Below, piece by piece: positions 4,686 through 13,117 of a stretch of DNA of 13,913 bases. The position numbers and the translations under genes were made by a program. Every line of letters begins with the position of its first letter. Within the stretch, counting starts at the first letter, position 1. This DNA comes from an uncultured archaeon (GTDB taxonomy: Archaea > Asgardarchaeota > Lokiarchaeia > Sigyniarchaeales > SOKP01), in contig CAZWEM010000003.1 in NCBI GenBank assembly GCA_964632315.1, forward strand, positions 1-13,913, given 5' to 3'. Under the pieces are notes generated by a model that worked only from the letters and a program-made list of their open reading frames with translations, had not been told where the DNA came from and searched no databases.

Positions 4686-5720
4686 ATGAAAGCGGCTATT
4701 TTTCTAGGAAAAGGAAAGATTGAGGTTCAAGATGTGCCAGATCCTGCCATACAAAATCCAGGTGATGCAATTGTCAAAGTAACATATACTTGTATCTGCG
4801 GGTCTGATCTGTGGTGGTATCGTGGCCTATTACCGCGAGAGAATGGCCCTATCGGCCATGAGTTTATGGGCATCGTGGAAGAGATAGGAGAGGGCGTCAA
4901 GAACGTGAATGTAGGAGATTTAGTGGTTGCACCATTCCTAATCTCGGATGGCACGTGTCCTGAATGCCAAGTTGGCATAACCTCCTCCTGCCGGAATGTA
5001 CAACGGTGGGGATCTGAAGGAAATGATGCGGGACAGGGCGAGAAGGTGCGCGTGCCATTAGCTGATGGTACTTTATTTGTGATCCCTCGGAATGACAAAA
5101 CTGGACAGATTATGCCTGCACTGCTACCACTTTCTGATGTGCTTTGTACCGGGCACCATGCAGCTATTTGTGCGGAAGTTGGGAACGGGTCAACCGTTTT
5201 AGTTATCGGAGATGGAGCAGTTGGGTTGTGCGCTGTTGCGGCGAGCAAGCGTTTGGGCGCCTCACGAATATTTTTAGGAAGCACTCATCCGGATCGTGCA
5301 GAAGTAGGCAAGAAATTCGGCGCAACCGATGTGATTGAAGCAAGGGGAGAAGAAGCCATCCAGCAAGTAAAAGTCAAGACCGATAATCTAGGTGTTGATT
5401 GTGTACTCGAATGTGTAGGCACGGCTGAATCGTGGGAAACAGCTTTTGGGGCTGTTCGAGATGGTGGTAACATTGGTGCCGTCGGGTTACCTTATGAAAT
5501 ACCCGATATTCCAATCTCCAAGATATTTTGGCGCAACATCGGCATTAAAGGTGGGCCTGCACCGGCCGCTCATTACATTCCCGAATTAATGCCAGATGTT
5601 ATTTCTGGAAAACTGAATGTCTCTGCTGTATTCACCATGACTGTTTCTCTCTCAGATATAGCTAAAGGTTATGAAGCCATGGATCAACGTAGAGCAATTA
5701 AAGTATTAGTAAGACCTTAG
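4686..5720 (+). CDS. Zinc-dependent alcohol dehydrogenase (MDR superfamily, formaldehyde dehydrogenase-like)
   Basis: Motifs CICGSD, GHE, structural Zn site D-x2-C-x2-C-x7-C, LSDV third ligand and GDGAVG nucleotide-binding motif. Confidence 0.93.
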   Translation: MKAAIFLGKGKIEVQDVPDPAIQNPGDAIVKVTYTCICGSDLWWYRGLLPRENGPIGHEFMGIVEEIGEGVKNVNVGDLVVAPFLISDGTCPECQVGITSSCRNVQRWGSEGNDAGQGEKVRVPLADGTLFVIPRNDKTGQIMPALLPLSDVLCTGHHAAICAEVGNGSTVLVIGDGAVGLCAVAASKRLGASRIFLGSTHPDRAEVGKKFGATDVIEARGEEAIQQVKVKTDNLGVDCVLECVGTAESWETAFGAVRDGGNIGAVGLPYEIPDIPISKIFWRNIGIKGGPAPAAHYIPELMPDVISGKLNVSAVFTMTVSLSDIAKGYEAMDQRRAIKVLVRP

Positions 5721-5850: not shown

Positions 5851-6393
5851 TCAAAATTCAGTTTTGAATTTCTTATTAACATCATCTAATAAATTTTCAT
5901 AAAAATCTTTCTCAATCCATAATCCATTTTCAATCATAGTATTGAGAACATGCTTAAAATCATCGTAAGATGAGATTAATTTTTTAGAGACCACATCTAT
6001 TAGAACTTCAGTAATCCATTTTGTAGAAATTCCTAATTCGGTTGCAATCTCTCGCGCTTTCCTATCGTTAATTAATAATAGATCTGCATTGAGTTCCTTA
6101 CTTAATGCAATAGCGTATGACTCCCCTAACCCTAAATCTAAAGAAAGTTTTAACGCTAATTCTTTCGATTCTTCTGTCTCCGGATTTTTAACAATTAACC
6201 ATCCTTCTGCTTTCGCATCTAATTCTAAACGAATATCTTCTGGAATACTTGCAAGGTTTTGACTTATCGGGTATATTAATTCCTCCCACACTTCTGTAGG
6301 TAAATAAATAACAGAATAAAGATCTTTTAGAAGTCTTAACTTGTTTATCTTACCAAAAAAGATGATTGGAGCAGTAACTGATATGACGATCAT
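5851..6393 (-). CDS. PIN-domain (DUF3368-like) putative type II toxin
   Basis: Motifs IYLPTEVWEE, LGLGESYAIALS.E..ADLLLINDRKAR..A..LG. It lies 12 nt downstream of a UPF0175-like gene. Confidence 0.85.
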   Translation of the reverse strand: MIVISVTAPIIFFGKINKLRLLKDLYSVIYLPTEVWEELIYPISQNLASIPEDIRLELDAKAEGWLIVKNPETEESKELALKLSLDLGLGESYAIALSKELNADLLLINDRKAREIATELGISTKWITEVLIDVVSKKLISSYDDFKHVLNTMIENGLWIEKDFYENLLDDVNKKFKTEF

Positions 6394-6405
6394 CTAAAAC
6401 CTACT

Positions 6406-6627
6406 TTAGTGATGAATAGGAATTCTCGCTTTTGCTCGAATAATATCGAATTCACGATAGGGTAAGCGTGCAATTTCTGCAGCTCTACCTATAGATATAG
6501 TTCCTCTCATGTAAAGTTCTAAAGCGTCTTTCACTTTTTTAGAGAGAGTGTTAAAATATTCCCAATCAATAGGTTTTATTAAATTTTGCTCATCAAACCA
6601 ATAATTCTTTTTAACTTCTTGAACCAT
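6406..6627 (-). CDS. UPF0175-like HTH putative antitoxin
   Basis: The C-terminal motif ALELY..G.ISIGRAAEIA.L...EF is typical of UPF0175, and the gene is paired with the PIN gene. Confidence 0.82.
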   Translation of the reverse strand: MVQEVKKNYWFDEQNLIKPIDWEYFNTLSKKVKDALELYMRGTISIGRAAEIARLPYREFDIIRAKARIPIHH

Positions 6628-8077: not shown

Positions 8078-8875
8078 TTGAACCATGAATTATTAGAAAT
8101 TTTTGATAAACACTCAAAAAGAGATTCAGTTGAATCTCGATTTAAAGGAACCATGACTTCAGTTTTTCTTAAAGGAAAAGAACACAAGATCAGGCATAAG
8201 CTCTTAGACCTTTCTGGAAAAAATATCTCAAGTATAAAAGATATTAAGGGCCTTGAAAAGGTAAAAGAACTGGAGATCTTAAATTTAAGTTTCAATAGCA
8301 TCAGAGAAATAGACCGGCTTGAAAACTTAGCACGATTAAAAGTCCTTCTTTTGTATAATAATAAGATTTCTCAAATTAAAGGATTGAACTCTCAATCAAG
8401 GTTAGAAGTTTTAAACCTATATGAGAATGAGATTATTGATATCGAAAATCTAGATGCATTACAACAACTTAAAGAATTATATCTGGGCTGTAATAAAATA
8501 TCGGAAATAAAAGGATTAGAATGTCTTACTAATTTAAAATATCTAAACCTTGAAAAAAATCAGATTAGAGAGATAAAAGGATTGACTTCATTAAGGAAAT
8601 TGATTTTATTGGCATTAAAATGGAATAAGATTAGTAAAATTAGTGGATTGAATAACCAACATGAGCTGATGAGGTTAGAACTCTCATATAATTCCATCAC
8701 TGACATTCAGGGATTAGAAAATCTCAATAACTTAATAAATTTAGACCTTCGACATAATCCAGTTGCAAATAAAGTCATCAAAACTGATCCAAATAATAAT
8801 TATAAAGTTTTAGTTAGGGATCTCGAAGCGAAAGAACTCGTAAGTTATTGCAGAGAATTACTGAAAAAAAAATAA
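8078..8875 (+). CDS. Leucine-rich repeat protein (SDS22/internalin-like 22-aa repeats)
   Basis: About 9 repeats of LxxLxLxxNxIxxIxGLxxL, ending in LDLRHNP. The start codon is uncertain (TTG). Confidence 0.9.
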   Translation: MNHELLEIFDKHSKRDSVESRFKGTMTSVFLKGKEHKIRHKLLDLSGKNISSIKDIKGLEKVKELEILNLSFNSIREIDRLENLARLKVLLLYNNKISQIKGLNSQSRLEVLNLYENEIIDIENLDALQQLKELYLGCNKISEIKGLECLTNLKYLNLEKNQIREIKGLTSLRKLILLALKWNKISKISGLNNQHELMRLELSYNSITDIQGLENLNNLINLDLRHNPVANKVIKTDPNNNYKVLVRDLEAKELVSYCRELLKKK

Positions 8876-10933: not shown

Positions 10934-12247
10934 CTAAATGACTTTCTTTCCACAATTCGGACATATTAAGGCTCCTTCGGGAAGCAAACCTCCACAATGC
11001 TTGCAATATGGGTCCTCTTGATAACCTTTTTTAGAGACAAATCTTGGTATTACCTTTAATGCACCAGCAAGATCGTCAGGGAATTTTGGGGGATTAAGGA
11101 TGTAAGGATAGGGATAATCTCCTCCACGATTGCCTCTAGAACGAAGATCCGATAGATAATCTGGAATTTCGGTTGTTATTTGGATATCTGTCTTTAATGC
11201 CATGAAGCTTTCATTATCGTGCTTGAGTTCTTCAATGATATCATATCGTTTTAGGTATTCTAAAGACTCATCGAGGTATTTTAAGGAGCGTTCAGATAAC
11301 ACGTGAGAAAGTTCATCTTTGGAAAAGATACCTTTTCTTAGTTGCGATAAGATGGTATACTTCCTTGAATCCGATAGGATTTGAAGTAAAACATATGAAT
11401 CTTCTTCTGATTCTTTTCCACTTTTATTTTCATATAGACTAAAATATTCTTGTACCTTCGGAAGCAGGTTTTTAATCATATCGTTTTCGAGATCTTCAGG
11501 AGCTTCTCCTAAATATTTACTTAAGCTTTCTGGAGGAATTCTTTTCACGCGTACCTCTTTCGATAAAAACACGTATTTCTCAATAAATCCGACTTGAGTA
11601 ATGAAGATCAATTGTTTTTATACGAGATTATCCATTAATTCTTTGAAACTGAAAAGTGGAAAAACCTCGTTAAACCATTCATTCAATTCTTCTAATGAGA
11701 TTTGTCCTTTTGACACCTTACTTAGAGTAAGATATACATGACGTTTGGTTAATAGGGTAGCAATTTGTTCTTCTTCACTTTTTTCTCGAGTTTCTTCAAT
11801 GGTAGCCCAGTAGAGCTCTTTAACCAATTCTTTTAAGATTTCATTGTTTTTTATAATTAAATCTTTATCGTCTTCTTCCATATTGTTTATATCGCTAATA
11901 TAAAATGCTGTATAGATTTCTCCATTTAATTGAAGTTTTGAACAAAAATCTGCGCATAAATTCATTAAATTGTGCTCCATCTCTGCGGATATTTGATCAT
12001 CAAAAATTATTGATACCATCACCTTCTCATTGTTCCCTCTTGACCAATCAGACTGAATCTCGAAATAGTAGTTTATGAATAGCTTATCCTCAAAAGAAAA
12101 AGTAAAAAAGCCTTCACTTACAGTTTGGTGTAAGATATTAGCAACTCGACCTGTGAATTGGTCATCTAATTCTTCTTTTGGGAAGGTATGCAATACTATC
12201 GGTCCCATTTTTCTATGAAGGTATGATAACACCACCATAGGCTTCAA
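10934..12247 (-). pseudogene. Single 437-codon gene (longin/uDENN-like N-terminus, winged-helix repeats, Pro-rich linker, C-terminal zinc ribbon) interrupted by one in-frame TAA at 11618-11620
   Basis: ORFs 11618..12247 and 10934..11611 are in the same frame: ELMDNLV*KQLIFITQVG. The N-terminus has a GP.V...FP motif and the C-terminus has CKHC-x10-CPNC. A GGAG SD-like sequence precedes the TTG start. Confidence 0.7.
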
Positions 12248-12516: not shown

Positions 12517-13117
12517 TTAATCCATTGCGTATTTCTTCGTCCAGCTTTCGGCTTTGGACTCGAATTTCTTCAAAGCCCGGAAATATTGTTCACCAGCTTC
12601 ATGATTTAACGGATCACCGGGATTAAAGAAGGGCGGCTTTACACGTCATGCAAGATAACTGCATGGCTCCATGTGCATCATGCCCTTCAATGCCTCAATG
12701 ATGTTCGTTAAAGTTTTACTTGGTGTCCATCCACTCGCCCCGGTCGAGGCATCCACTTTTCCTACGAGATCGGGATTTATTAAATCTAAGCAAATGTTCA
12801 ATTTCCCCGGTGGTATCGAACTATCGATATTTGGATCGGCATTTATAGATAAGTTCTATAAATTATGCCACATCAGAGTAACCGCATACGCGTTTATCCT
12901 TTTCAAGCGATTTGCTTTGAAAAAATGGAGGCGTAAACGGATAATTCTCGGGGAACTTGATTTCGAACACGAATTTTCCCTTATAATAGGGGGTACCATC
13001 TTTGCCATGAATGGTTAGCCGCAGGTGGTCGATGCTTCGACCCCATGGTTCGATTACCACGGAGGGGTCCTCTTTAAACGCTTCGAGCGCTTCAGCATAA
13101 TCGGTTTCTTCTCTCAC
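12517..13117 (-). CDS. Ubiquitin-conjugating enzyme E2 (UBC fold), 169 aa after splicing; exons 13117-12925, 12893-12865, 12834-12669, 12638-12517
   Basis: The joined exons (193+29+166+122 = 510 nt) translate to MREETDYAEALEAFKEDPSVVIEPWGRSIDHLRLTIHGKDGTPYYKGKFVFEIKFPENYPFTPPYAYAVTLMWHPNIDSSIPPGKLNICLDLINPDLVGKVDASTGASGWTPSKTLTNIIEALKGMMHMEPPFFNPGDPLNHEAGEQYFRALKKFESKAESWTKKYAMD*. All E2 hallmarks are present: GTPY..G.F, YPF.PP, HPNI, ICLDL with Cys89 at 12790-12792, WTP, DPLN.EA and WTKKYA. Confidence 0.92.
12639..12668 (-). other. Putative archaeal-type (canonical BHB) mRNA intron 3, 30 nt
   Basis: mRNA: GC-ACAU-GG|A-GCCAUGCA-GUUAUCU-UGCAUGAC-GUGU-AA|A-GC. It has a 4-bp central helix, two 3-nt bulges and an inner stem with 7 of 8 bp paired. 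It contains an in-frame TGA (12646-12648), and removal gives HMEPPFFNPGDPLN. Confidence 0.85.
12835..12864 (-). other. Putative archaeal-type (canonical BHB) mRNA intron 2, 30 nt
   Basis: mRNA: UG-UGGC-AU|A-AUUUAUAGA-ACUUA-UCUAUAAAU-GCCG-AU|C-CA. It has a 4-bp central helix, two 3-nt bulges and a perfect 9-bp inner stem. It contains an in-frame TAG (12856-12858), and removal joins H and P of HPN. Confidence 0.88.
12894..12924 (-). other. Putative archaeal-type (relaxed BHB/BHL) mRNA intron 1, 31 nt
   Basis: mRNA: UACGC-CUCC-AU|U-UUUUCAAAGC-AAAUC-GCUUGAAAA-GGAU-AA|A-C-GCGUA. The central helix is 3 of 4 bp paired, the inner stem is 9 bp with one bulged A, and the outer stem is 5 bp. Removal repairs the frameshift and restores the E2 PP-x9-HPN spacing. 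Confidence 0.78.

Follow-up and report, generated by a model that had tools for sequence, protein, structure and literature searches.

An intron with bulge-helix-bulge (BHB) borders in the pre-mRNA of the archaeal gene cbf5 was reportedly described by Watanabe in 2002 and by Yoshinari in 2006. The present analysis concerns intron 2 of a ubiquitin-conjugating enzyme (E2) gene on a stretch of 13,913 nucleotides (nt), called the window, which is the start of contig C3 (CAZWEM010000003.1) of a 4.4-Mb Asgard archaeal genome. This element can be regarded with high confidence as a real, very probably spliced, tRNA-type (BHB) intron in an Asgard mRNA. It appears to work like an archaeal BHB intron and has most of the testable features of one, and cbf5 is the nearest published case. 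The cbf5 intron occurs in Desulfurococcales and Sulfolobales with a length of 16-44 nt (Yokobori 2009, PMC2738675) and was the only earlier mRNA example in a 2020 survey, which added a case in the 5' untranslated region (UTR) of Haloferax HVO_1309 (PMC7714728). In the literature searched, no archaeal coding sequence other than cbf5 has a BHB intron (PMC2738675, PMC7714728). A literature search, with subscription journals mostly outside it, turned up no publication that deals with mRNA introns of Asgard archaea or with exon circles arising from such splicing.

Like the cbf5 intron, intron 2 is short (30 nt), lacks an open reading frame (ORF), has BHB or relaxed BHB borders and lies at a catalytically important coding motif, here His-Pro-Asn (HPN); both hosts have a two-subunit splicing endonuclease (EndA), and both introns were precisely lost in some lineages. 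The E2 case differs in host (Asgard, not crenarchaeal), in gene (ubiquitin E2, not pseudouridine synthase) and in position, intron 2 lying between codons and the cbf5 intron inside the catalytic codon. The E2 gene also has three introns and a 29-nt micro-exon, with at least 8 intron sites in its family; its intron is rare and patchy, whereas cbf5 had one ancestral gain, and exon circles were seen for E2. In eukaryotes, spliceosomal back-splicing makes exonic circular RNA (circRNA), and IRE1 and RtcB splice XBP1/HAC1. The E2 circle resembles eukaryotic circRNA in joining a downstream donor to an upstream acceptor, and the E2 intron resembles that of XBP1/HAC1 as a short, frame-breaking mRNA intron whose removal would take an endonuclease and a tRNA ligase. 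Unlike the eukaryotic cases, it has no spliceosome or GT-AG ends and a BHB shape in place of IRE1 loops, and regulation is not evidenced here. Asgard tRNA introns come from the same organism group and share the BHB borders, repeated gains, the alpha/beta EndA and the lack of a known arrival route, but that study covers tRNA genes only, and the words 'mRNA' and 'cbf5' are absent from its text (bioRxiv 10.64898/2026.10.13.758758). HVO_1309, with a BHB in its 5' UTR, is comparable as an mRNA that the splicing endonuclease processes and whose processing was revealed by circular products; the circle there is the excised UTR intron, whereas here it is a coding exon between two introns (PMC7714728).

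Layout and fold of the interrupted E2 gene

Spliced alignment to an uninterrupted orthologue, made blind to structure, placed three inserts in the E2 gene, at 12924-12894, 12864-12835 and 12668-12639. With all three removed, the gene encoded a full E2 of 169 amino acids (aa) with HPN and the catalytic Cys89 intact, and keeping any single one truncated the protein to 76-136 aa, retention of intron 2 ending it at 76 aa. Four metatranscriptomes (X1 to X4) cover part of the stretch; X1, X2 and X4 are marine sediment from one study, and X3 is rhizosphere from another. The layout of the gene is as follows.

12517..13117, minus: E2 gene (ubiquitin-conjugating, PF00179), four exons, 169 aa spliced, GTG start, TAA stop
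12925..13117, minus: exon 1, 193 nt
12894..12924, minus: intron 1, 31 nt, frameshifting, relaxed BHB (3/4 central pairs)
12865..12893, minus: exon 2, a 29-nt micro-exon, last codons Trp-His
12835..12864, minus: intron 2, 30 nt, inserted in phase 0 where His74 meets Pro75, with an in-frame TAG (12858-12856); RNA end at 12834
12669..12834, minus: exon 3, 166 nt, with the codon of the catalytic Cys89 (12792-12790); closed RNA circle
12639..12668, minus: intron 3, 30 nt, BHB, TGA stop when retained; RNA ends at 12669 and 12639
12517..12638, minus: exon 4, 122 nt including the stop codon

The PF00179 match in Pfam was obtained with exon 1 and also with the uninterrupted orthologue (E 3.5e-25), which aligned to Ubc4-type structures. 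The gene was the sole member found of its orthologous family in the genome, which has one uninterrupted E2 paralogue, on contig C29. Close orthologues (90-98% identity over exon 3) were mostly labelled Promethearchaeota, that is, Loki-type Asgard archaea, and databases list the interrupted E2s as fragments of 64-88 aa. The dN/dS of the spliced E2 (0.030 against orthologue L124 and 0.023 against L121) indicates strong purifying selection on the spliced frame.

Intron 2 lies on the minus strand between the CAT codon of His74 and the CCA codon of Pro75, and its BHB has the following parts.

12867..12870, minus: central helix, exon strand UGGC (Trp codon and first base of His), invariant in 7/7 carriers
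12864..12866, minus: 5' bulge AU|A, with the 5' splice site at 12865/12864; X4 record 21 suggests an RNA end at this site
12841..12863, minus: intron hairpin with a 9-bp stem (12863-12855 with 12849-12841) and a 5-nt loop
12837..12840, minus: central helix, intron strand GCCG (GCUA, GUUA, ACCA and GUCG in orthologues)
12834..12836, minus: 3' bulge AU|C, with the 3' splice site at 12835/12834; RNA joints start at 12834

Cuts behind the second base of each bulge excise precisely the 30 nt of intron 2. The central helix was fully paired (4/4, one pair being U-G), with a predicted probability of 0.98 for three of the four pairs, and the region folded better than shuffles (z = -3.83). The outer exon helix had 2 bp in the window, 1 bp of them conserved (G-C, 7/7), and a predicted pairing of about 0.01, and the exon-side flank was closer to the relaxed than to the strict hBHBh' form. 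The window protein alone fits three equivalent placements of the intron, because AT stands at both ends of the insert. Phase 0 was set by four same-site orthologues in which only one placement, the BHB one, is possible (L081, L082, L084 and L124), and by the RNA joints at 12834, which carry zero ambiguity and settle the 2-nt ambiguity of the window. The initial annotation had placed the insertion in phase 0 between the His and Pro codons, described the helix of exon UGGC and intron GCCG with its bulges, and held that the protein-defined and structure-defined junctions coincide; all of this was confirmed at 12864-12835. Its wording was too strong at two points, as the protein of the window does not by itself fix the junction 'exactly', which the orthologues and RNA do, and 'textbook' fits the geometry but slightly overstates a motif with one G-U pair and a weak outer helix.

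When the insert was transplanted along its own gene, an equally good helix arose at 0.9% of positions. No Rfam match was found in the window, the 30 nt of intron 2 holding no ORF, and no second copy that could be a donor of the insert was found in the genome or in viral contigs. A genome-wide tally of strict mini-BHB motifs was uninformative (836 against 791 in the reversed control).

Same-site inserts, intron gain and loss

Genome orthologues carried no insert at any of the 80/80 loci compared, WHPN being uninterrupted. A pattern search of 161 genomes of the class found the insert only in the window's own genome, and the pattern search for a same-codon insert returned none in GTDB genome contigs. 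Pattern and protein searches yielded six further distinct inserts at the His-Pro codon (L081, L082, L084, L121, L124 and L126), the carriers coming from metagenome contigs and protein clusters. The seven distinct same-site inserts, that of the window included, are all 30 nt long. Their alignment showed 92% of cells paired, against 27-42% with the partners slid, and 11 two-sided changes, against 3.5 in shuffles. Across the seven sequences, 6/9 pairs of the intron stem were compensatory, changed on both sides. The central helix was paired in 27/28 cells over the carriers with one-sided changes only, because the Trp codon and the first base of His dictate its exon strand; two-sided compensation in the UGGC/GCCG helix, proposed as a check in the initial annotation, is therefore impossible, and the one-sided changes keep the pairing. 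The same-site inserts thus keep the BHB geometry; with RNA ends on the predicted 3' cut as well, neither of the two outcomes named as refuting the initial annotation was observed.

The family as a whole contained 32 distinct inserts at 8 sites, including sister inserts of 29, 31 and 32 nt, and 30/32 had relaxed BHB geometry at the best protein-defined placement. Such geometry occurs in 1.8% of random windows, and 1.3 of the 32 would be expected to have it after allowing for multiple placements; the comparison overstates the significance, as kin are not independent, but the pattern nonetheless stands at eight separate sites. Two or three inserts elsewhere in E2 were seen in L082, L128 and L070 (coding 169, 171, 193, 322, 380, 388 and 436), among them one of 21 nt and one with a bulged central helix. 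Unspliced L082 and L124 are listed in databases as proteins (P0074 and P0101) with 10 added residues inside HPN. At the intron 1 site (coding 187-193), the helix-forming CCT CCA T was present in 6/6 full-length carriers against 18% of non-carriers, and synonymous sites there appear constrained by the splice motif.

The intron 2 insert was present in 6/97 distinct genes and missing from 91/97. Its carriers did not form one clade on the gene tree, which needed 4 changes, and a single clade was rejected by the approximately unbiased (AU) test (p = 0.005). L137, within the window's own 100/99 clade, had a clean His-Pro junction with introns 2 and 3 absent, while L127 and L135/L136 gave no information owing to a contig end, an N run or membership of another clade. 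The private substitutions of L137 (coding 209-476) lay mostly downstream of position 205 (3/24 upstream, p = 0.003), and in L124, which lacks intron 1, 5/8 private changes lay at most 20 nt from the intron 1 site (coding 191-210; p ~1e-4 after scan correction), both cluster windows having been chosen after the data were seen. The private clusters round the missing introns consist of synonymous changes. Introns were probably lost by recombination with a diverged intronless allele and not by copying of the cell's own mRNA. Same-site inserts of different lineages agreed at 13-22/30 bases, whereas other-site inserts agreed at about 11. Homology of the same-site inserts is therefore probable, and they would be either ancient and lost many times or passed from lineage to lineage.

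The HPN motif matters for E2 structure and catalysis (PMC12032130), so imprecise loss of the intron would be harmful. The initial annotation had proposed that this location favours retention, and the distribution does not support it, with one carrier among 161 genomes, 91/97 genes without the insert, a patchy tree and clean absence in L137. As 81% of codons 56-146 are at least 98% conserved, nearly every insertion in this stretch would hit an 'invariant' site; with most of the gene as conserved as HPN, the position is no evidence of targeting, and other inserts stand in codons only 81% conserved (Glu57) or beside codons only 72% conserved. A narrower idea of retention survives, in which non-degenerate codon positions may stop the exon half of the motif from drifting; the Met-Trp-His and Pro codon positions, frozen in this way, probably keep the site splice-competent. 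Intron 2 itself may be selfish or neutral cargo, precisely gained and lost. The likeness once drawn to self-splicing elements is loose, as no homing or self-splicing machinery, such as a group I or group II ribozyme core or an intron-encoded endonuclease, was evident.

RNA ends, circles and competing explanations

A back-joint from 12834 to 12669 was found in X1 and X2 (depth 38.9 and 45.8), and one from 12834 to 12639 in X4 (depth 19.5). The back-joined contigs had 0-1 mismatches to the window and 0 ambiguous letters at the joints. Position 12834 directly follows intron 2, 12669 directly precedes intron 3, and 12639 is the base with which intron 3 ends; the RNA ends thus match the predicted 3' cut of intron 2 and both cuts of intron 3, with a rough chance of 6e-6 for three distinct ends. 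X1 record 2 has 196 nt, equal to the 166-nt exon 3 plus a 30-nt overlap, and is therefore a closed cycle of exon 3, which has no open frame round the ring. X4 record 21 covers intron 2; depth arithmetic gave 106 solutions for its hidden piece, only one of them compatible with the 30-nt contig overlaps, by which the record would continue at 12668-12697 and fit a circle begun where intron 2 is cut on its 5' side. In X1 and X2, a second organism showed the intron-3 5' site joined to the intron-1 3' site. The joined forms were absent from the window's genome, and no exon-3 joint turned up in genome contigs.

One contig of X3, at a depth of about 2, had an exon 2 identical to that of L126 with introns 1 and 2 missing. 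A second X3 contig had 8 differences from the window, the 6 listed all matching L126 upstream, and the DNA of L126 has both introns. The two contigs are suggestive of a doubly spliced mRNA of an L126-like relative. A search of genome contigs for an intronless DNA that fits the X3 contig came back empty, although such an allele could still exist.

The genome encodes two EndA paralogues (alpha on contig C28, beta on C8) and an intact RtcB (C26). The alpha subunit aligned with solved catalytic alpha structures, keeping the His where one entry has Ala, and the second paralogue was without this His. ARAGORN found only 30 tRNA genes in the genome, many with introns or odd anticodons, which suggests that its tRNA genes are heavily interrupted. 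Cleavage by EndA yields an upstream fragment with a cyclic phosphate and a downstream fragment with a 5'-OH, ends of the kind that RtcB joins. In the proposed mechanism, the Trp-His codons of exon 2 would pair in the pre-mRNA with the 3' end of intron 2 to form a 4-bp helix between two 3-nt bulges, EndA of the alpha/beta type would cleave behind the second base of both bulges, and RtcB would ligate the exons, restoring His-Pro-Asn and the reading frame. Removal of all three introns would be needed for the 169-aa E2. Because an exon between two BHB introns carries both joinable ends, the ends of exon 3, once freed, could also be joined to each other, giving stable circles as a side product, and the two intron-containing circles would need cleavage at only one bulge of an intron. 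EndA and RtcB are presumably the responsible enzymes, with linear ligation in the window's strain and translation of the product equally presumed. A hybrid BHB of the 3' half of intron 2 and the 5' half of intron 3, as in pre-rRNA circularisation, was rejected, as ACAU cannot pair with GCCG. On balance it seems somewhat more probable than not that Loki-type Asgard archaea splice multi-intron mRNAs with tRNA machinery and thereby yield stable exonic circular RNAs in the cell; the circles would be of exon 3, of exon 3 with intron 3 and, probably, of intron 2 with exon 3. If true, this would be mRNA back-splicing without a spliceosome, possibly matched by exon skipping, in the lineage that stands closest to eukaryotes.

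Several observations weigh against splicing of intron 2 or against the circles as its products. The minimum-energy fold was a slightly shifted hairpin (-12.6 against -8.8 kcal/mol for the full BHB), so the fold check, favourable against shuffles, left the full BHB 3.8 kcal/mol above the best fold. The inserts of L082 and L124 at the intron 2 site are in frame and stop-free, so splicing is not forced by a stop in every carrier. The X3 case is one contig at a depth of about 2 and could stem from an intronless allele, because intron presence varies within the clade. No linear exon 2-exon 3 junction was found for the window's strain, exons 1, 2 and 4 being uncovered in X1, X2 and X4; these uncovered exons were not counted as absence. 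The evidence for circles consists of assembled contigs, not raw reads, from one study and with no DNA control, and RNA libraries may contain DNA or ligation products made during library preparation.

There is accordingly an appreciable, though minority, chance that the back-joints are library or assembly artefacts, from template switching or in vitro ligation, and say nothing of cellular circles. The single study, the use of contigs only, the missing library details and a check of the joined forms confined to these runs leave room for this. The ends nevertheless coincide to the base with predicted BHB cuts, sharing no letters by which a template switch could be primed, and the analogous joint of the intron-1 3' and intron-3 5' sites was seen in a second organism in the same runs; in vitro ligation would still need ends already cut at these bases. 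A rather improbable alternative accepts the cuts and holds that the exons are rarely rejoined in order, the BHBs being switches that destroy or down-regulate the mRNA with circles as the main product. The window's strain did yield only circles containing exon 3 (depth 17-46) with exons 1, 2 and 4 uncovered, and a role as negative regulator was proposed for the cbf5 intron (PMC2738675). However, strong purifying selection on the spliced frame requires that protein be made, and patchy presence among close relatives speaks against a needed regulatory role. Circles also resist exonucleases, and contigs of relatives in the same runs are likewise of exon 3 only, which points to selective survival or enrichment.

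Two further explanations would dispense with splicing altogether. A pseudogene disrupted by small inserted hairpins, such as relics of mobile elements, with an incidental BHB look, is very improbable. Three disruptions in one 600-nt gene and the intact E2 paralogue on C29 would suit it, yet dN/dS is 0.02-0.03, HPN and the catalytic Cys are intact, the unambiguous carriers have no target-site duplication, the stems carry compensatory changes, RNA ends lie at predicted cuts, and no other copy of the insert is present in the genome or viral contigs. Practically negligible is the prospect that the insert is skipped in translation, by ribosomal bypass or stop read-through, although its 30 nt are in frame and a hairpin follows its stop codon. 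The take-off and landing codons are unmatched (CAT against GAT, AAA, GAC or GAA in carriers), read-through would insert 10 residues into HPN, sister inserts measure 29, 31 and 32 nt, and the RNA itself is cut at the borders. Splicing as a BHB intron accordingly remains the preferred reading of intron 2.

Wider meaning and further features of the window

What the locus presents, in a close relative of eukaryotes, is a three-intron mRNA whose structure is proved by comparison to be maintained and whose RNA ends are exact to the base. Least expected in the finding are the exon circles. An Asgard gene with an annotation as split or truncated can be intact, so counts of eukaryotic signature proteins, for example of the ubiquitin system, come out too low. 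Exon order, micro-exons and exon circles are here problems that arose without a spliceosome, and intron gain and precise loss can be traced at the population level. The locus also offers a 58-nt substrate (12878-12821) for direct tests with EndA and RtcB.

This E2 family further showed a long loop past the catalytic Cys (12789-12730) and extra residues between HPN and Cys in comparison with Ubc4-type structures. Elsewhere in the window, two tandem ORFs of similar, unassigned type lie at 10934-12247 on the minus strand (225 aa with a C-terminal zinc ribbon, and 209 aa) in different frames and 6 nt apart; they are possibly one split or fused gene. An ORF resembling zinc-type alcohol dehydrogenases at 4686-5720 has about 50% GC against about 33% in its surroundings and may have been acquired. 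Also observed were a leucine-rich-repeat ORF (8078-8875) and a PIN-like pair (5851-6627).
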